From positions 1-20,046 of the forward strand of contig JACPCX010000138.1 in NCBI GenBank assembly GCA_016184305.1: a stretch of 20,046 bases of DNA. The letters run 5' to 3'. The notes under the pieces are model-generated. The model had not been told where the DNA came from. It did not search any database and worked only from the letters and a program-made list of their open reading frames with translations. Positions within the stretch are counted from its first letter, which is position 1. Every line of letters starts with the position of its first letter. The translations under genes were made by a program, and so were the position numbers. Positions 8,782 through 16,938 of the stretch are shown one piece after another. This stretch comes from Candidatus Rokuibacteriota bacterium (GTDB lineage Bacteria; Methylomirabilota; Methylomirabilia; Rokubacteriales; CSP1-6).

Positions 8782-9141
8782 ATGACCTCCACGGACGATC
8801 AGATCTACGAGCTGCACGCGAGCGTCTGCCAGATCCTGGCGAACCCCACGCGGCTGAAGGTCCTCAACGCGCTCAGGGAGCAAGAGATCGCCGTGGCGGA
8901 CCTGGCTCGACGCGTGGGGACCAGCATGCCGAACCTCTCCCAGCACCTGGCCATCCTTCGCCAGCGCGGCGTCGTGCTCACCCGGCGGGAGGGCGCCACC
9001 ATCCACTACCGGATCGCCAACCCAAAGATCCTCCGCGCCTTCGACATCATGCGCGAGGTGCTCTTCGAGCAGATCGCCGAGGGCCGGCGGCTCGTCCGGG
9101 CGGCCGGCGCCGGAGCCCGGCGGAGCCGGACGGCACGGTGA
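8782..9141 (+). CDS. ArsR/SmtB family transcriptional repressor
   Basis: LANPTRLKVL, VADLA, NLSQHLAILRQRGVV and RREGATIHYRI winged-HTH motifs; single Cys (C16). Confidence 0.93.
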   Translation: MTSTDDQIYELHASVCQILANPTRLKVLNALREQEIAVADLARRVGTSMPNLSQHLAILRQRGVVLTRREGATIHYRIANPKILRAFDIMREVLFEQIAEGRRLVRAAGAGARRSRTAR

Positions 9142-9145
9142 CGGG

Positions 9146-9502
9146 ATGCCGCGCCTCCTGACGTTCGTCCTGTCCGCCGGCCCCTACTCGGGCCAGGCCG
9201 CATCCAGCGCGCTGACGCTCGCGAGCGCGGCGCTGGGCGCCGGCCACCGGGCGACCATCTTCGCCACCGCCGATGGGGTCTCCGGCTTCGTGACGAAGCA
9301 GAAGACCGCCGGTGTCTTCGACGTCGGCGCGGCCGCCGCCGCCTTTCTCTCCCGCGGGGGCGACGTCCACCTCTGAGGGTCCTGCCTGCGATTCAGGGGA
9401 ATCGCCGAGGAGGATCTGCTGGCGGGGGCGATGGTCGGAAGTCTCTCGCGTCTCATGACGCTTCTTGGGGAGAGCCACGCCGTGCTCACCTTCGGGCGAT
9501 AG
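9146..9502 (+). CDS. Selenocysteine-containing DsrE/TusD/YchN-family sulfur relay protein (118 aa, U77 in UxxC)
   Basis: In-frame TGA 9374-9376 in VHL-U-GSCLRFRGI; the frame continues 41 codons in DsrE-like sequence (...GSLSRLMTLLGESHAVLTFGR) to TAG 9500-9502; SECIS-like hairpin follows. Confidence 0.9.
9377..9417 (+). promoter_or_regulatory. Bacterial SECIS element 1
   Basis: GCGATTC-AGGG-GAATCGC apical 7-bp stem with a G-rich loop 18 nt after the TGA; lower stem GGGTCCT/AGGATCT and CCT/AGG. Confidence 0.8.
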
Positions 9503-9512
9503 GGCGCGCCTC

Positions 9513-9878
9513 GTGCCGCGGCTCCTGTGCCTCGTGCTCGATCATGCCCCGTATGGCTCACTCCAGCCTGCGGAGGCGATCCGCCATGCCGGGGGGGCGC
9601 TCGGGAAGGGCTGGGAGGTCGTGCTCGCCTTCATGGGAGATAGCGTCTACACGGCGCTGCCGGGACAGGCGCCGCTGCCCGACGGGTGGCTGTCGCTGTC
9701 GGAGGCGCTCGGCGGGATCCTGGAGACGGGCGAGGAGCGAGTGCGAGTATTCGCGGACCAGGACTCCCTCGATGTCCGCGGGCTGTCGGCTGGCGAGCTG
9801 ATTCCCGGCGTGCATCCGGCGGCGGCTGGCGAGATCGCCTCCGCCATGGCCGCCTGCGACAAGACGCTGCTCTTCTGA
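9513..9878 (+). CDS. DsrF/TusC-like DsrE-family protein (121 aa; GTG start corrected from the track)
   Basis: LVLDHAPYGS, AFMGDSVY, DQDSLDVRGL and CDKTLLF motifs; lacks the central active-site Cys, as DsrF does. Confidence 0.8.
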   Translation: MPRLLCLVLDHAPYGSLQPAEAIRHAGGALGKGWEVVLAFMGDSVYTALPGQAPLPDGWLSLSEALGGILETGEERVRVFADQDSLDVRGLSAGELIPGVHPAAAGEIASAMAACDKTLLF

Positions 9879-9885
9879 GGATCCC

Positions 9886-10215
9886 GTGGCCTCGATCCTC
9901 CTGGCCCTGAGCAGCTCGCCGGAAACCCCAGCCGGGCAGCGGGCACTTGCCCTCGCCGGTTCCCTGGCAGATCAGGGGCATGCGCTCACGCTCTGCTGCC
10001 TGCAGGACGCCGTGCTCCTCGGCAGCGATCGTGCCCCAGGAGAGGCGCGAGCCCTGCTCGACAACCTGCTCGATCGGGGCGCACGCTGTCTGGTTCTCCG
10101 CGAGGACCTGCTCCTCCGCGGGCTTCAGGGCGGTGCGCGCGCCCTGACGGTGGACCACGCCGGCCTGATCGCGGCCCTGACCGCCAACCACGACCGGGTC
10201 ATCGGCGCCCTGTGA
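9886..10215 (+). CDS. DsrH/TusB-like protein
   Basis: LQDAVL, VLREDLLLRGL and VDHAGLIAALTANHDRVI match the DsrH/TusB pattern; third gene of a DsrE-fold triplet. Confidence 0.75.
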   Translation: MASILLALSSSPETPAGQRALALAGSLADQGHALTLCCLQDAVLLGSDRAPGEARALLDNLLDRGARCLVLREDLLLRGLQGGARALTVDHAGLIAALTANHDRVIGAL

Positions 10216-12557
10216 GACTGCCGCGCTTCTCGCTCGTTGAGTTCTCCGTCAGACATCCGAAGCTCGTCGTCTCTCTCACGGTCCTCGTCACCCTCGCGTT
10301 CATGACGCAGTTCCCGCGGATGAAGACAGATACGAATCCGAAGAACATGCTTCCGGCAACATCCGACGTCAGGGTATGGAACGATGAGGTGGACAAGACG
10401 TTCGCGCTGTACGAGGACATGATAGTCGTCGGGATCGCACGAGACGGCGGCGCGCTCAACAGCGAGACGCTCGAGAAGGTCGGCAGGATCACGAACGAAC
10501 TCCTCAAGATCAAGGGGGTTGCGGCGAGGGATGTCACCAGCTTCCCCACCATCACCAATGTCACTTCCGAGTCGGGCACCCTGAAGGTGGCGCCGCTCAT
10601 GGTGGCAGTCCCGAAGACGAAGGGCGACATCGAGAACCTCCGCACGTCGCTCTTCGAGAACCCGCTCTTCATCGATCGCATCATCTCGAAGGACGGGAAG
10701 ACGACGGCGATCTACGTTCCTCTCGAACAGGGGGCGAACGGCAGGGACGTGGCAGACCGGATACGGGAGATCGTGGGACGGGAGAAGGGGGACGAGAAGT
10801 ACTACATCGCGGGTGACCCTGTCGTCAGGGACACGTTCGGCGCAGAGATGTTCACGCTCATGGCGATCCTTGCGCCGATCGCAGGGATGATCATGCTCGT
10901 CGTCCGGTATGTCATGTTCAGGGACCTCTTCCTCTCCATCGTGCTGATGATGGATGCCATGATCAGCATAGTGTGGAGCATGGGGCTGCTCATAGCGCTA
11001 GGATTCCCGATTCACATCATGAGCTCCATGGCTCCCGTCTTCTTGATGGCCATCGCGACCGACAGCATTCACATCTTCAACGAGTTCTACTTCCGCTTCA
11101 GGGAGAAGCAGGACAAGACGGCGGCGATCATCGAGACCATGCAGGCGGTGGGCCGCCCCGTCCGCTACACCGCGCTGGCAACGGCCGCGGGCTTTGGAGT
11201 GCTCCTGTTCATGAGCATCGTGCCGGTGCAGGTCTTTGGAGGCCTGGTGGCATTCGGGACCGTGGCGCTGCGGATCCTGAGCTTCAGCTTCATCCCCGCC
11301 ATGTTCACCTTCGTGAAAGAGGCGAATATCGAGAAGGCGGCCCAGGGAGAAGACGTGTCGTCGAGCAGGACCTCGGTGTTCCTGAGGGCGCTTGCCGGAA
11401 TCGGTGCGTATCGACCCAGGACGACTGTTCTCGTGGGCCTCCTGCTGTGTGCGCTGGCGATCACGGGGATCACGCGGATTGTCGTGAACAACAACATGGT
11501 GGAGTGGTTCAAGAGCGGCAGCGAGATACGGGTGGCGGACGCGGAGATCAACAGGGCGCTCGGGGGCACGTCTCTCGGCTATGTGGTGGCAGTGTCGAAA
11601 GAGGAGGACTTCATCAAGACTCCTGAGGCACTGAAGTACATCGCGAATCTCCAGCGGCATCTGGAAACGCTGCCGGTCGTGGGGAAGACGTTCTCCGTCG
11701 CAGACTACGTGAAGAGGATCAACCGTGTCCTTCACAACGACGACCCCGCGTTCGCTGTCATTCCTGAGACAAAGGAGGCTGTGGGCCAATACCTGTTCCT
11801 GTTCAGCATGTCTGCGAAGCCGTCGGACCTGAACAATGTGGTCGATTACCCTTTCAGCAGGGCGAACATCTGGATTCAGCTCAAGACGTGGGATGCGCGG
11901 GCGATGGAGGAGGTCATCAGGGCGCTCGACGGCTACAAGAAGGCCCACCCGATTGCTCTGGAGCTCAAGCCTGCGGGCATCGCCTACTTCAACCTCGTCT
12001 GGAACCGCGAGGTTCTGTGGGACATGGTCACGGGGTTCCTGTTGGCCCTCATCGTGGTATTCGTCATCCTCGTCTTGAACTTCCGTTCCGTCAGGTGGGC
12101 CGTGGTGAGCTATGTCCCGCTCCTGTTCACGATTCTCCTCATCTACGGGGCGGTGGGATTCAGCGGCAAGCGGTTTGACATGCCCATCTCCGTGCTGTCG
12201 TGTCTGTCTCTCGGGATGGCGGTGGACTTCTCGATTCATTTCATCAGCAGGTTCAAGCAGAGACTGGCGGAGAGCAAGGAGCTCGGAGCTCGGAGATCAG
12301 ACGCCGACCTCATCACCGAGTCGTTGCTGTGGACTGCCGCGAGACCTGGCAAGGGAATCATGCGGAACGCGGTGCTGTTCGCGGCGTCTTTTGCGGTGAT
12401 GATGCTCGCGCCGCTGACGCCCTATGTCACCGTCGGTGCGTTCATCGTGAGCATGATGATGCTGAGCGCGCTCATGACGATGATCTATCTGCCGGCACTG
12501 ATCGTGTGGCTGCGAGGGTGGCTGTTTCCGGGAGGCCTGACATGGTCGCGGCAGTGA
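10212..12557 (+). CDS. MMPL/RND superfamily transporter
   Basis: 781 aa with a twofold TM+periplasmic repeat; IATDSIH and MAVDFSIH proton-relay-type motifs; GTGA overlap. Confidence 0.92.
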   Translation: MRLPRFSLVEFSVRHPKLVVSLTVLVTLAFMTQFPRMKTDTNPKNMLPATSDVRVWNDEVDKTFALYEDMIVVGIARDGGALNSETLEKVGRITNELLKIKGVAARDVTSFPTITNVTSESGTLKVAPLMVAVPKTKGDIENLRTSLFENPLFIDRIISKDGKTTAIYVPLEQGANGRDVADRIREIVGREKGDEKYYIAGDPVVRDTFGAEMFTLMAILAPIAGMIMLVVRYVMFRDLFLSIVLMMDAMISIVWSMGLLIALGFPIHIMSSMAPVFLMAIATDSIHIFNEFYFRFREKQDKTAAIIETMQAVGRPVRYTALATAAGFGVLLFMSIVPVQVFGGLVAFGTVALRILSFSFIPAMFTFVKEANIEKAAQGEDVSSSRTSVFLRALAGIGAYRPRTTVLVGLLLCALAITGITRIVVNNNMVEWFKSGSEIRVADAEINRALGGTSLGYVVAVSKEEDFIKTPEALKYIANLQRHLETLPVVGKTFSVADYVKRINRVLHNDDPAFAVIPETKEAVGQYLFLFSMSAKPSDLNNVVDYPFSRANIWIQLKTWDARAMEEVIRALDGYKKAHPIALELKPAGIAYFNLVWNREVLWDMVTGFLLALIVVFVILVLNFRSVRWAVVSYVPLLFTILLIYGAVGFSGKRFDMPISVLSCLSLGMAVDFSIHFISRFKQRLAESKELGARRSDADLITESLLWTAARPGKGIMRNAVLFAASFAVMMLAPLTPYVTVGAFIVSMMMLSALMTMIYLPALIVWLRGWLFPGGLTWSRQ

Positions 12558-12591
12558 GGAAAGCGCTGCCGAGTCCGACGGGAGGGAAGCG

Positions 12592-13404
12592 ATGGCTCTG
12601 AACAGGGCAGTGGCGGCTGTCATCCTCGCTCTGCTGGCGGTCTCCTGGCTGGCGCAGCCGTCGGCCGCGCAGCCTTCAGCGGACCAGATCATGTCACGCG
12701 CCCACCTGGCCATGTACTACCCCGGGGAGGATATGCGGGCGCGGGTCACGATGCGCCTGGTCTCGCGCGACGGCAAGGAGCGGCTTCGTGAGCTGACCAT
12801 GACGCGGCGGGACCTCCAGGACGGGGGGGAGCAGCGATACTTCATATACTTCCACCGGCCGCCGGACGTCCGGGACATGACGTTCCTCGTCTGGAAGTAC
12901 CCGGGCAAGGACGATGACCGCTGGCTCTACATTCCCGCCCTGAAGCTGGTTCGGCGGATCGCGGCCAGCGACAAGCGGTCGAGCTTCGCAGGCTCGGATT
13001 TCAGCTACGAGGACATCTCCGGGCGGGAGCCAGAGGAGGACACCCACAAGCTGATCAGGGAGGACAAGGCGGGCGCCCGGGATGCCTACGTCGTGGAGAG
13101 CGTCCCGAAGGACCCCGGCAGCGTGGACTTCGGGCGGAAGCTCTCGTGGATCGACAAGGGGAGGGGGCTGCCGCTCAAGGAGGAGTACTTCGATCGCCGG
13201 GGCGACCTGGCGCGGGTCTTCACCGCCGAGGAGATCACGGAGATCCAGGGTTTCTGGACGGTCACCAGGCGCGTCATGAAGAACGCACAGACCGGCCACT
13301 GGACAGAGGCGGTGCTGGCCGACGTGCGCTACAACCAGAAGCTCGCCCCCGATCTCTTCAGCGAGCGCGCGCTCCGAGCCCCCCCGACCGAGCTGGTGCG
13401 GTGA
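12592..13404 (+). CDS. Outer membrane lipoprotein-sorting (LolA-like) periplasmic protein
   Basis: GGGAGG RBS; signal peptide; PPDVRDMTFL, DDDRWLYIPALKLVRRI and FAGSDFSYEDI motifs. Confidence 0.9.
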   Translation: MALNRAVAAVILALLAVSWLAQPSAAQPSADQIMSRAHLAMYYPGEDMRARVTMRLVSRDGKERLRELTMTRRDLQDGGEQRYFIYFHRPPDVRDMTFLVWKYPGKDDDRWLYIPALKLVRRIAASDKRSSFAGSDFSYEDISGREPEEDTHKLIREDKAGARDAYVVESVPKDPGSVDFGRKLSWIDKGRGLPLKEEYFDRRGDLARVFTAEEITEIQGFWTVTRRVMKNAQTGHWTEAVLADVRYNQKLAPDLFSERALRAPPTELVR

Positions 13405-14672
13405 CAGGCCGCGCGGCGCTGGCGTGGCTCGCCGCCGCCGCGACCCTGGCGCTCGGGGGCGGTGCAGAGGCGGACGAGGACGGCGTCCCGCTCCACGGCT
13501 TCGTGCAGGCGGGGACGGCGTATCGGCTGATCCAGCCCGACCGATGCGCCCGCACCCAGCGGCTCGCCTGCAGGGAGCCCTTCGTCCTGGGCGAGGGCCG
13601 GGCCCGGGTCGAGTTGACGCCGCGGGGAGAGTGGTGGGGCCTCACCGCCAAGGGCGAGATGATCTTCGACGCGCTCGTGCCCGAGGTGGACGGGGAGCTG
13701 CGGGAGGGCTATCTCGACCTCGCGCTCGGGCCCCTGGACCTGCGTATCGGGCGCCAGGTCATCACCTGGGGCGTGGGGGACCTGGTCTTCATCACCGACG
13801 TCTTCCCCAAGGACTGGGTCGCCTTCATCGCGGGGCTCCCGCTCGAGTACCTGAAGAAGGGCTCGGACGCCGTCAGCGCCACGGGCCACTGGGCCGGGAC
13901 CTCGCTCCAGCTCGTCCTGATCCCTCGCTTCGAAACCGACACGCTCCCCGAGGCCGGCGGCCGGCTCGCCTTCCATGATCCCGCAGCAGCGGTGGAGCGG
14001 CGCTACACGGACGACCCCACGCCCTCGCTCGGCCACACGGAAGCCGGCGCGCGCCTGTCCCGCAACGTCCTCGGCTGGGACCTGTCGCTCTACGCCTATC
14101 GCGGCTTCTTCCACACGCCGGCCGGCGAAGTGGAGCCGGGACCACGACTCCGGCTCTTCTTCCCGCCGCTCAGCGTCTACGGCGCCAGCGCCCAGGGGGC
14201 CCTGCTGGGCGGCGTCCTGAGCCTCGAGGCGGGCTACTCGGATTCCCGCGACGATCGATCCGGAGGCAACGCGGCCGTCGAGAACTCCTCCGTGAAACTG
14301 CTCGCAGGCTACCAGCGGGAGGTGCTTCCGGACCTGACTCTCTCGGGCCAGTATACCGTCCACGTGATGGAGGACCACGGCGAGTACGTCCGGAGCCGGG
14401 GCCCGGGCATGCCGCGCCGGAGCGCCGCCCGGCATGTCCTGACCGCCCGGCTGACCCAGCTCCTGCTCCATCAGACGCTCCGGCTCGGCCTGTTCGGGCT
14501 GGCGAGCCCCAGCGACGGCGACTGGTATCTGGGGCCGGAGGCGCGGTACCAGATCACGGATGCCCTCTCGGCGACGCTGGGGCTGAACGTCTTCGGGGGC
14601 CCCCGCCGCAGCGACTACGGCCAGTTCGAGGGCAACTCGAGTCTCTACACCGTGGTCCGTTATGCCTTCTGA
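13401..14672 (+). CDS. Outer-membrane beta-barrel protein (DUF1302-like), 423 aa
   Basis: GTGA overlap; signal peptide; LREGYLD and LRIGRQVITWG; amphipathic strands; C-terminal VRYAF BAM-type signal. Confidence 0.8.
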   Translation: MTGRAALAWLAAAATLALGGGAEADEDGVPLHGFVQAGTAYRLIQPDRCARTQRLACREPFVLGEGRARVELTPRGEWWGLTAKGEMIFDALVPEVDGELREGYLDLALGPLDLRIGRQVITWGVGDLVFITDVFPKDWVAFIAGLPLEYLKKGSDAVSATGHWAGTSLQLVLIPRFETDTLPEAGGRLAFHDPAAAVERRYTDDPTPSLGHTEAGARLSRNVLGWDLSLYAYRGFFHTPAGEVEPGPRLRLFFPPLSVYGASAQGALLGGVLSLEAGYSDSRDDRSGGNAAVENSSVKLLAGYQREVLPDLTLSGQYTVHVMEDHGEYVRSRGPGMPRRSAARHVLTARLTQLLLHQTLRLGLFGLASPSDGDWYLGPEARYQITDALSATLGLNVFGGPRRSDYGQFEGNSSLYTVVRYAF

Positions 14673-14689
14673 AAGGAGGTGATGGGGTA

Positions 14690-14898
14690 ATGGCGCTCCA
14701 CATGGAGCAGTGGCTTCGGTTGCTGGGGGGCATCATGGTCCTCGGCAGCGTCCTGCTCGCGGTGGTCCACAGCCCCCAGTGGCTCTGGGTGACCGGCATC
14801 ATGGTGATCAACCTGATCCACAGTCCGCCTTCACCAACTTCTGACCGTCCATGCTCCTCCTGCGGGCGGCAGGAGTGAAGGAGCAGGGGGCGCGGTAG
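14690..14898 (+). CDS. DUF2892/YgaP-like small membrane protein with putative selenocysteine, interrupted by a 2-nt frameshift (pseudogene or sequence error)
   Basis: RBS AAGGAGGTGA. Removing the duplicated CA at 14819-14822 gives NLIQSAFTNF-U-PSMLLLRAAGVKE (68 aa), matching family NLxQSAFTxWCP with TGA at the Cys; ends TAG 14896-14898, 3 nt before the next ATG. Confidence 0.78.
14845..14895 (+). promoter_or_regulatory. Bacterial SECIS element 2
   Basis: CTCCTGC-GGGCG-GCAGGAG 7-bp stem with a G-rich loop 19 nt after TGA 14842-14844; lower stem TGCTC/GAGCA. Confidence 0.68.
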
Positions 14899-14901
14899 CG
14901 C

Positions 14902-15627
14902 ATGGAGGCGTCGCGGCTGGAGTTGCCCGGGGGCGGGCAGTTCGACACGCTCGCGCCCGCATACGACGCCTGGTACGACACCCCGCTCGGCAGGGTCGTG
15001 GATCGACTCGAGAGCGGGGCGGTGCTCGGCCTCGTCGGCGAGGGGCCTGGTGCCTGGGCGCTCGACCTGTCATGCGGGACGGGGCGCTACGCCCTTGCCC
15101 TAGCGCGCCGGGGCCTGAGGGTCGTGGGGGTGGACATCTCCGAGCCCATGCTCCTCGTCGCGCGCGCGAAGGCGCGCGAGGCCGGGTGTGACCTCCGCCT
15201 CGTCAGGGCCGACGCGCGAGCGTTGCCCTTCCGAGCGGGCACTGTCGATCTCGTGACGATCATCCTCGGGCTCGAGTTCGTTGGCGAGCCGCGAGGCGTC
15301 CTGGAGGGATGCCATCGTGTCCTGGTGCCGGGCGGGAGCCTCGTGATCGCGATCCTGAATCGCGCGGGACTCTGGACCGTCTGGCGCCGGCTGAAGCGCC
15401 TCGTGGTTCCCTCCGTCTGGGGTGGCGCGACCTTTCTCAGCCCCGCCGAGCTGGGCGACCTGCTGCGTGCCCGCGGTTTCACCGGGCTGCGGTGGCGCGA
15501 CGCGGTACACTTCTTACCGCTCCTCGGGCGCAGACGGGTGGGCTGGCTCGAGCGCTGGGAGGCGATCGGCGCTCGGTGGATGCCTGGACGGGCGACCTTC
15601 GTGGCGGTGGCGGCGCGGCGCGCATAG
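14902..15627 (+). CDS. Class I SAM-dependent methyltransferase
   Basis: YDAWYDTPLG, LDLSCGTG, GVDISEPML, ADARALPF and RVLVPGG motifs. Confidence 0.92.
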   Translation: MEASRLELPGGGQFDTLAPAYDAWYDTPLGRVVDRLESGAVLGLVGEGPGAWALDLSCGTGRYALALARRGLRVVGVDISEPMLLVARAKAREAGCDLRLVRADARALPFRAGTVDLVTIILGLEFVGEPRGVLEGCHRVLVPGGSLVIAILNRAGLWTVWRRLKRLVVPSVWGGATFLSPAELGDLLRARGFTGLRWRDAVHFLPLLGRRRVGWLERWEAIGARWMPGRATFVAVAARRA

Positions 15628-15776
15628 CAGGCTGCTGAAAAAGGCCCATCTGCTTCGTTGGCGCCCTCGGCCGCACGCTCAACGTACAGCGAGTACGCCT
15701 CGCGTGCGGCCGTCGGGCGCCGCCTCGCATCTGGACCTTTTTGAGCAGCCCGCAGGGTTTTCCCGCATCCTGATAG
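15625..15776. repeat. Palindromic MITE/REP-like non-autonomous element
   Basis: GCAGGCTGCTGAAAAAGG (15627-15644) vs CCTTTTTGAGCAGCCCGC (15736-15753), 16/18 inverted match; nested palindrome; second degenerate end near 15758-15775; TAG at both flanks. Confidence 0.75.
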
Positions 15777-15789
15777 AGGAGGAGGGGCG

Positions 15790-16938
15790 ATGGCGACCAC
15801 GGTGATCCTGGGGGGCGGAGTCGGGGGTCTCGTCACCGCCAGCACGCTGAGGCGCCGGCTCGACCGGACGCACCGCATCATCCTGGTCGAGCGCCAGCGC
15901 CAGCACGTCTTCACCCCCTCCTTCCTGTGGATGATGCTCGGCTGGCGCGAGCCCCACGAGATCGCCCGTGACCTCGCGAGCCTCGAGCGCAAGGGGATCG
16001 AGGTCGTCCAGGACGAGATCCGCGAGATCGATCCCGTTGCGCGTCAGGTGAAGACCGAGCGCCGCACGCTCTCCGGCGACTACCTCGTCCTGGCGCTTGG
16101 CGCCGAGGGGTGGCTCGGCGGCATCCCGGGCCTGGCCAGCGCCGGCCACAACGTCTACGATCTCGAGGGCGCGCTGGGGCTGCGCGATGCCCTGCGCCAG
16201 TTCCGCGAGGGGCGCGTGGCGGTGCTCATCGCGGGGCTGCCGTTCAGGTGCCCGGCGGCGCCCTACGAGGCCGCCATGCTGATCGAGGCCTCGCTCAGCC
16301 GGCGCGGGCTTCGCGAGCGGGCGCAGGTGGACGTCTACACCCCCGAGACGCTGCCCATGCCCGTCGCGGGCCGCGCGATGGGGGAAGCCGTGAAGGGGCT
16401 GGTCGAGAGCCGCGGGGTCGGCTTCCATCCACAGCACAAGGTGGTGGCCGTGGATCCGGAGCGGCGGGAGCTGGCGTTCGAGAACGGCGCCAGGGCTGGC
16501 TACGACCTGCTCGTCGTGATCCCGCCGCACCGGTGCGCCCCCGTCGTGAAGGAGGCGGGGCTCACCGTCGAGCCCGGCTGGGTGCCGGTGGACAAGGGGA
16601 CGCTCCAGACGAGCTACGAGCGCGTCTTCGCCATCGGGGACACGACGCTGATCAAGTTGCCCGTGGGGCTGCCGCTGCCGAAGGCGGGCGTCTTCGCCCA
16701 TGGCCAGGGCGAGGTGGTGGCCGAGAACATCGCCGCGGAGGTCGCCGGAGGGAGCGGCGCGCGGCGCTTCGACGGCTTCGGCTCCTGCATCATCGAGATG
16801 GGCCACGGGGTGGCCGCCTACGCGAAGGGCAACTTCTACGCGGAGCCCGCGCCCGCGATGACGATGCGCTCGCCGAGCCGGCTCTGGCACTGGGGGAAGA
16901 TCTACTTCGAGAAGCGGTGGCTGCGGCGGTGGTTCTGA
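15790..16938 (+). CDS. Sulfide:quinone oxidoreductase-like FAD-dependent disulfide oxidoreductase (type III SQR-like)
   Basis: GGGVGG Rossmann motif, FRCPAAPYE, FAIGD, LPKAGVFA, distal Cys in GSCIIEMG, C-terminal amphipathic WHWGKIYFEKRWL. Confidence 0.85.
   Translation: MATTVILGGGVGGLVTASTLRRRLDRTHRIILVERQRQHVFTPSFLWMMLGWREPHEIARDLASLERKGIEVVQDEIREIDPVARQVKTERRTLSGDYLVLALGAEGWLGGIPGLASAGHNVYDLEGALGLRDALRQFREGRVAVLIAGLPFRCPAAPYEAAMLIEASLSRRGLRERAQVDVYTPETLPMPVAGRAMGEAVKGLVESRGVGFHPQHKVVAVDPERRELAFENGARAGYDLLVVIPPHRCAPVVKEAGLTVEPGWVPVDKGTLQTSYERVFAIGDTTLIKLPVGLPLPKAGVFAHGQGEVVAENIAAEVAGGSGARRFDGFGSCIIEMGHGVAAYAKGNFYAEPAPAMTMRSPSRLWHWGKIYFEKRWLRRWF

Follow-up and report, generated by a model that had tools for sequence, protein, structure and literature searches.

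Does a TGA codon standing at a conserved cysteine mark a gene in decay, or a codon for selenocysteine (Sec)? The question arises at positions 14690-14898 (forward strand) of a 20,046-nt stretch of a Candidatus Rokuibacteriota genome (assembly GCA_016184305.1, contig JACPCX010000138.1; the whole stretch is called the window below), where a small gene of the DUF2892/YgaP-like_TM family carries TGA at 14842-14844, exactly at the family's invariant cysteine (Cys). A preliminary description, drawn from the letters, had proposed a cryptic selenoprotein with a downstream hairpin as its selenocysteine insertion sequence (SECIS) element, and on re-reading its frames, TGA, hairpin and 19-nt spacing all proved correct. 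Comparison with relatives leads us to conclude that the locus is very probably a genuine selenoprotein gene, Sec-decoded in its intact orthologues, of which this allele was inactivated only recently; the broader reading, of Sec at the conserved Cys of a family so far uncatalogued, is well supported by sequence comparison.

As present in this genome, the gene is divided between two frames. Frame 1 from the ATG at 14690 translates to MALHMEQWLRLLGGIMVLGSVLLAVVHSPQWLWVTGIMVINLI, then HSPPSPTSDRPCSSCGRQE, and stops at TGA 14876-14878; this open frame (14690-14878) encodes 62 amino acids, two helices followed by an unrelated tail. The frame from 14821 reads QSAFTNF, the TGA at 14842-14844, PSMLLLRAAGVKEQGAR and a TAG at 14896-14898. 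The shifted tail HSPPSPTSDRPCSSCGRQE holds a CSSC motif, which is the hairpin region read in another frame and probably a chance occurrence.

The proposed placement of the TGA at a conserved Cys of DUF2892 is borne out by profile scores and alignments, which identify the column as invariant in PF11127. Read with Cys, intact orthologues score 41.9-46.3 bits on PF11127 (cut-off 25.3) over profile positions 9-59, across the site; the window's two halves, lying in different frames, were not joined for scoring, and its N-terminal half alone reaches 16.9 bits over profile positions 9-43, below the 25.3-bit cut-off. The site column, C51, is invariant both in alignment A2 (12 sequences) and in alignment A7 (56 of 56 sequences from many phyla, Sec being read as Cys), and the profile of A7 matches chain 2mpn_A (E = 7.6e-7, positions 5-58). 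An AlphaFold2 model of the intact allele in metagenome locus L181 has helices at residues 5-26, 31-48 and 52-59 (mean predicted local distance difference test score 74.7), with the Sec-Pro pair at the start of the last; the two transmembrane helices that define PF11127 members are present by this model and by homology to the solved 2MPN. None of the NCBIfam models matched the Sec-type DUF2892 protein.

We then asked how the codon is distributed, searching 183 genomes of the order with the protein of genome G015 and 251 genomes of the phylum with a profile. An orthologue or remnant was found in 12 genomes (251 of the phylum searched), eight of them with TGA at the site; uninterrupted copies with TGA occur in G135, G136, G153, G157 and G168, the last also having Leu for Pro and Pro for Arg at positions conserved elsewhere. 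When metagenome contigs were scanned with the seeds [IV]QSAFTNF and W[LV][TA]G..G.NL, which leave out the codon in question, 25 loci were returned, with TGA at the site in 22 and TGT or TGC in none. Twenty of these loci are uninterrupted, one is cut by a contig end and one carries the same type of deletion as G154, all with TGA; of the remainder, two carry a deletion of the G152 type, and one (L195), which we set aside, matches doubtfully over 14 residues in DNA that is AT-rich and unrelated. TGA-containing orthologues with a conserved hairpin, the evidence that the preliminary description called for, are therefore at hand (22/25 metagenome loci, 8/12 genomes), and the outcome that it named as fatal, orthologues with only TGC, TGT or TGG and a hairpin not kept, is the opposite of what the 25 loci show, the hairpin core being retained in 21 of 21 distinct orthologous sequences. 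One locus, L190, represents a second subfamily (QSGFTDW-U-PMMTVLRAAGV, motif FTDW-U-PMM) that is 62% identical and has TGA in the same column; its Cys twin, P0005, is named from a Syntrophobacterales metagenome-assembled genome (MAG). Taken together, these alignments indicate that TGA at the site is ancestral and not a lesion.

The same codon leaves a mark in protein databases. Selenoprotein genes are routinely shortened by gene callers. In the protein collection, 14 of 39 matches are 48-50-residue records ending exactly in ...QSAFTNF, two records of this length bear the name 'DUF2892 domain-containing protein' and come from NC10 and Rokubacteria MAGs, and four further records end in ...GFT(D/G)W; the public 48-50-residue 'DUF2892 domain-containing proteins' would be products that stop at a Sec codon. 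Protein Atlas clusters with 48-50-residue PF11127 representatives (52, 80 and 104 members) offer a lead only. In database proteins P0002, P0003, P0042 and P0013 the site is occupied by Arg, Ser, Gly or Leu, variants that, like the Trp codon of G160, lie one base from TGA, presumably so for the four, which were seen as proteins. Rows of '1 TGA' in genus g61, considered as further Sec forms, turned out to be ordinary stops ending Cys-type paralogues.

If TGA is decoded as Sec, a SECIS element should follow it. The bacterial SECIS (bSECIS) model, as set out in the legend to Fig. 2 of a 2026 review (PMC13188914), comprises a 3-9-nt loop with G at its first two positions, a 4-16-bp stem, a distance of 16-37 nt from the UGA and a minimum free energy of -7.5 kcal/mol or lower. 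The hairpin CTCCTGC/GGGCG/GCAGGAG at 14857-14875 agrees with all four rules as that legend gives them; across the sequences compared, the element has a stem of 5-7 bp, a 5-nt loop, 19 nt between TGA and loop, and energies of -8.4 to -12.1 kcal/mol. Its 5-bp core, CCUGC/GCAGG, is the part kept in all 21 sequences. The loop reads GGGCC, fitting the N1-G-G-N-N2 pattern of the bacterial model in that same source, in 19 of 21 sequences; the window has GGGCG and G168 has CGGCC. At loop base 14868 the window has G, where 20 of 21 sequences have C. A scan of 14600-15000 against Rfam, with E up to 10, gave no match.

More telling is the silence of the synonymous sites within this hairpin. Across 18 distinct uninterrupted sequences, codons 53-56 are CTG (17/18), CGG (17/17), GCC (18/18) and GCA (18/18), whereas Leu, Arg and Ala elsewhere in the gene are written in two to five synonymous ways (five at Arg6, four at Leu5). 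The proportion of synonymous differences (pS) is 0.024 in the hairpin core against 0.405 upstream, about 17-fold lower, and three of four degenerate codons are invariant in the core as against two of 24 elsewhere (Fisher p = 0.011). In 20 Cys-type paralogues from the same phylum the homologous Leu is written with five codons and the Arg with three, and no hairpin is common to them.

Beyond the hairpin, the reading frame itself appears to continue past the TGA. The residues downstream are conserved in the 18 uninterrupted sequences, with synonymous variation at P48, S49, G57, K59 and E60, and the downstream peptide aligns with the C-termini of Cys-type homologues. TGA is also the ordinary stop of the upstream gene (14670-14672) and of a sulfide:quinone reductase (SQR)-like gene in the window, so it has not been reassigned genome-wide.

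This genome's own copy has nonetheless lost its frame. A blastn alignment to the G015 orthologue shows ATC--CAGTC there and ATCCACAGTC in the window, and the same 2-base gap appears in a MAFFT alignment with three metagenome contigs, L181, L188 and L176, the first of which shares 99.27% identity with the window across 2,600 nt and is in frame. We compared window positions 14500-15050 with contigs of public sequencing runs (Logan), among them run X1, the probable source sample; the runs listed for the stretch include none of RNA. A 630-nt Logan contig from X1, at depth 76.7, shows no differences across 14537-15050 (514 nt), insertion included, and no X1 contig over 14500-15050 lacks the two extra bases; the two bases are absent from contigs of three samples from other studies (X5, n=1; X7, n=2; X12, n=3). 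Since the insertion recurs in an independent X1 contig, it is not an artefact of one assembler, and it is specific to this population. Relative to L181, two further changes are confined to the window, Gly to Val at 14805 and the C-to-G loop change at 14868. As it stands in the window, the gene is a pseudogene made by a young frameshift. What the preliminary description called a frame-corrected 68-residue protein was thus right in its letters, though the change of frame is a real lesion, a duplication of CA, and its view of the window's copy as a working cryptic selenoprotein falls with the frameshifted allele, found in an independent assembly and missing from near-identical strains. A low-depth X1 contig that skips 14683-14829 was not used, its shorter side spanning 22 nt and perhaps belonging to another organism. 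In X5, X7 and X12, summed contig depth over 14823-14898 exceeds the flanks 4- to 10-fold, which indicates that many related organisms in those samples share this short conserved segment.

The window's copy is one of several casualties. Copies are disrupted in seven of the 12 genomes, and every lesion is different: the two extra bases here (G000), one extra G in a G-run in G015, an internal deletion removing both helices in G154, a deletion of the IQSAFTNFU codons in G152, a lost start codon and replaced C-terminus in G026, a deletion together with TGG (Trp) at the site in G160, and TGG-to-TGA at Trp33 in G228. From the genus-mate G003 the gene is wholly absent (C18:36208-36211, locus L024), the upstream stop and the methyltransferase ATG standing 2 nt apart. 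We appear to be observing a selenoprotein gene in the course of being lost, frameshifted in one strain and intact in another 99.3% identical, disrupted in other ways in six more related genomes and deleted outright in a seventh.

Could these observations be explained without Sec? One alternative takes the TGA as a true stop throughout the family, ending a 50-residue product, with the conserved downstream stretch and hairpin serving as a regulatory RNA such as an attenuator or coupling element. The 48-50-residue annotated proteins ending in QSAFTNF (14 of 39 matches) favour it, yet the stretch beyond the TGA keeps the frame and matches Cys-type C-termini position by position, PF11127 scores span it, its codons outside the hairpin change synonymously with the amino acids kept, and the supposed stop coincides exactly with the sole invariant Cys column; nor is the next gene constant, being a methyltransferase in some genomes and the SQR-like gene in G154. 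We regard this alternative as very improbable. A decaying relic, in which the TGA is an old nonsense mutation and conservation merely reflects recent common ancestry, would account for those database proteins in which Arg, Ser, Gly or Leu fills the site and for the excess of disrupted Sec-type copies (7/12 genomes, against 1/22 for Cys-type paralogues of the same phylum; Fisher p = 0.001, kin not being independent). It sits badly with 18 uninterrupted sequences in which pS reaches 0.405 and the upstream ratio of non-synonymous to synonymous differences (pN/pS) is 0.21, signs of long-standing purifying selection, with a TGA held in common by a subfamily only 62% identical, and with frozen synonymous sites in the hairpin, for which a dead gene would have no need; we consider it scarcely credible. 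A third alternative concerns the window alone: the insertion might be an assembly or sequencing error, or be bypassed by programmed recoding, leaving a working gene. In-frame, near-identical contigs do exist in other samples, and the genome assembly is MAG-like and fragmented, at 239 contigs. Set against this are the independently built X1 contig with the insertion at depth 76.7, the lack of any X1 contig without it, the character of a tandem CA duplication as a typical replication slip, and the presence on the same allele of the Gly-to-Val (14805) and loop (14868) changes, which have no counterpart in relatives; restoring the frame would take a +2 or -1 shift, and inspection by eye revealed no slippery heptamer at ATC-CAC-AGT. 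We hold a working gene in the window to be very improbable.

Several observations pull against Sec decoding and the lesion as we read them. Pooled pN/pS outside the hairpin core is higher downstream of the TGA (0.46, based on nine codons) than upstream (0.21). The hairpin displays no covariation, its core pairs never varying (RNAalifold covariation term -0.09 kcal/mol), its two outer pairs hold in only 9/21 and 12/21 sequences, and its fold z-scores of -0.6 to -1.9 against shuffles are unremarkable, a measure uninformative in GC-rich DNA. Whether the hairpin exceeds chance would thus be answered no by folding energy alone and yes by conservation, and with no covariation and ordinary z-scores the argument for it is therefore the one from frozen synonymous sites. 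X1 may be the window's own source sample; its contigs exclude an assembler artefact, but the insertion may be a variant specific to that sample, and contigs drop rare alleles. Disruption in seven of 12 genomes suggests that the gene is often dispensable, which weakens any claim of an essential role. The function discussed below has its basis in the genes nearby and in what other organisms show of Cys-type relatives, and the case for Sec decoding is in its entirety a comparative one. Finally, searches of this genome's 88.8%-complete assembly turned up neither selA nor selB nor tRNA-Sec, the last having been sought in an aragorn listing filtered for Sec.

Other parts of the Sec machinery speak to this absence. 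The genome's own selD, the selenophosphate synthetase gene (G000:C18:28407-29345 (-), locus L001), has TGA in AGUASK, at the catalytic UxxK position, so the organism cannot produce its Sec donor unless it decodes Sec. Among relatives, SelA is present in 37 of 41, selB exceeds the cut-off in five of five and tRNA-Sec is found in four of five; in G003, selC, selA and selB share one locus of ~5 kb (C2:43285-48078), an arrangement repeated in G001, G002, G136 and G153. This genome's assembly measures 3.2 Mb, compared with 4.7-5.4 Mb for genus-mates, and the absence of selC-selA-selB is most simply explained by one missing contig.

Is the Sec form already known? DUF2892, YgaP and PF11127 are absent from Table 1 of the 2026 review (PMC13188914), which lists 119 prokaryotic selenoprotein families, a comparison that covered the whole of that table; it agrees with the preliminary suspicion of an undescribed family. 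The text of the deep-Sep paper makes no mention of any of the three names, and a literature search found no paper pairing DUF2892 or PF11127 with selenoproteins. The Sec form of PF11127 appears to be a family uncatalogued in current selenoprotein lists, unless it stands in a supplementary table under another name. Its closest known counterpart is the small Cys-type DUF2892 'QSAFTNWCP' subgroup, which shares the length of 60-72 residues, the two-helix layout, the basic C-terminal helix and the motif NL-QSAFT-x-(W/F)-C/U-P; it differs in coding the site with TGT or TGC and in lacking a conserved hairpin, where the Sec group has TGA and a SECIS-like hairpin. This subgroup is widespread, with at least 574 confirmed stretches in species-representative genomes; a scan of such genomes gave 78 Cys and two Sec among 80 kept loci, a ratio that is not a frequency, one seed peptide having required Cys. 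The transmembrane domain of Escherichia coli YgaP (2MPN) is related by profile homology, and its gene has an ArsR-type regulator, as an ArsR-type gene heads the cluster here; in YgaP, however, the domain is fused to a rhodanese domain and the aligned position is Ser in the solved chain.

Among the selenoproteins in the table of the review (PMC13188914), the DsrE-like family (UxxC) is likewise a Sec-for-Cys variant of a sulfur-relay protein and has a member, with the motif HLUGSC, 5.5 kb upstream in the window, though it is soluble, of unrelated fold and already catalogued. The same review catalogues membrane selenoproteins, YeeE/YedE (GUxSG), a putative mercuric transport protein (C/SxxU) and the SO_0444-family Cu/Zn efflux transporter (UxC), in which Sec likewise sits in an integral membrane protein with a presumed part in dealing with sulfur species or soft metals; these families are larger, multi-pass and unrelated, with no PF11127 domain. 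With a Sec form of PF11127, the prokaryotic selenoproteome would gain a very small integral-membrane protein, and the invariant Cys of a widespread family of unassigned function would be marked as its reactive centre.

The surroundings of the gene, a conserved cluster (Table 1), suggest what that centre might do, and would link PF11127 with the handling of sulfide and persulfide. On the regulator at 8782-9141, which opens the cluster, the BigR model scores 58.5 bits, below its cut-off. A hairpin with an AGGG loop lies ~18 nt 3' of the TGA at 9374-9376 in the DsrE-like gene; this gene's TGA is conserved, and the TGA form is present in four of the five genomes with an uninterrupted DUF2892-Sec gene (the two genes share a contig in G168 and G135), which upholds the earlier mention of a second TGA-at-Cys gene in the cluster. 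The best NCBIfam match of the SQR-like protein is NF049943, 'type III SQR, selenoprotein subtype', at 233.7 bits (cut-off 525).

Table 1. Features of the DUF2892/YgaP-like_TM gene and its cluster, by position in the window.
Feature	Positions	Strand	Evidence or remark
ArsR/SmtB-family regulator, head of cluster	8782-9141	+	NF033788 84.7 bits, over cut-off
DsrE/TusD-like gene, TGA 9374-9376, motif HLUGSC	9146-9502	+	
DsrF-like and DsrH-like genes	9465-10215	+	PF02635 43.5 bits; PF04077 21.7 bits (below cut-off)
HAE3/MMPL-type exporter, LolA-like protein and DUF1302-like outer-membrane protein	10212-14672	+	DUF1302 match weak, 18.1 bits
Strong Shine-Dalgarno-like AGGAGGTG, upstream of ATG 14690	14674-14681	+	Read in sequence; conserved in L181, L188, L176 and G015
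N-terminal coding part, two predicted transmembrane helices, frame 1	14690-14820	+	Translation
CACA, a 2-bp CA duplication, frame-shifting lesion	14819-14822	+	Alignments to orthologues; run contigs
QSAFTNF motif, now in frame 3	14821-14841	+	Near-invariant in orthologues (columns Q44-F50, alignment A4)
TGA at invariant Cys column; predicted selenocysteine in intact orthologues	14842-14844	+	Alignments
C-terminal coding part PSMLLLRAAGVKEQGAR	14845-14895	+	Amino acids conserved; aligns with Cys-type C-termini
SECIS-like hairpin	14857-14875	+	Core 14859-14863 paired with 14869-14873; loop 14864-14868
Stop of frameshifted 62-residue open frame, TGA	14876-14878	+	Translation
Stop of orthologous reading frame, TAG	14896-14898	+	Translation, alignment
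S-adenosylmethionine-dependent methyltransferase, directly downstream of the Sec-type DUF2892 gene	14902-15627	+	
Type III sulfide:quinone reductase-like flavoprotein, Cys form (GFGSCIIE)	15790-16938	+	Ends at ordinary TGA

In intact orthologues, a DUF2892/YgaP-like_TM protein of 66-69 residues would be made by reading UGA codon 51 as Sec, with insertion directed by the small hairpin 19 nt downstream. The protein would span the membrane with two helices, its Sec-Pro pair capping a short C-terminal helix that, by the positive-inside rule, may lie at the cytoplasmic membrane face. In this genome the CA duplication shifts the frame before the Sec codon, and the Sec site and C-terminal helix are lost.

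Literature on Cys-type relatives gives a direction. One study (PMC5358917) reports that the Cys-type DUF2892 transcript of Azospira suillum rises ~10-fold during H2S oxidation and that deletion slightly delays the onset of oxidation; another (PMC9774250) describes how E. coli ygaP shares a transcript with the gene for YgaV, a sulfide-responsive regulator that represses it. Because of this literature and the gene neighbourhood, we tentatively propose, as a possibility that we hold to be less probable than its absence, that the Sec, anchored at the membrane, might accept or relay persulfide or selenosulfide sulfur as part of the handling of sulfide and reactive sulfur. A wider scheme, which we put forward as doubtful, would unite the DsrE-like and DUF2892 selenoproteins, the SQR-like protein, the methyltransferase, the export trio and the ArsR/BigR-like sensor in one selenium-dependent system. 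Were it correct, persulfide or selenosulfide sulfur would pass from the membrane, at the SQR and quinone site, to the membrane-anchored Sec and on to DsrEFH, the product being exported or methylated, and a conditional cost (selenium scarcity, for example) rather than drift would explain why the membrane Sec protein has been knocked out independently so many times.

Between the methyltransferase and SQR-like genes, at 15632-15772, lies a segment of ~141 bp whose ends are inverted repeats. L181, L176 and L188 lack this segment, which gives 109 blastn alignments across many contigs of this genome, some of them self-complementary; it looks like a miniature mobile repeat.

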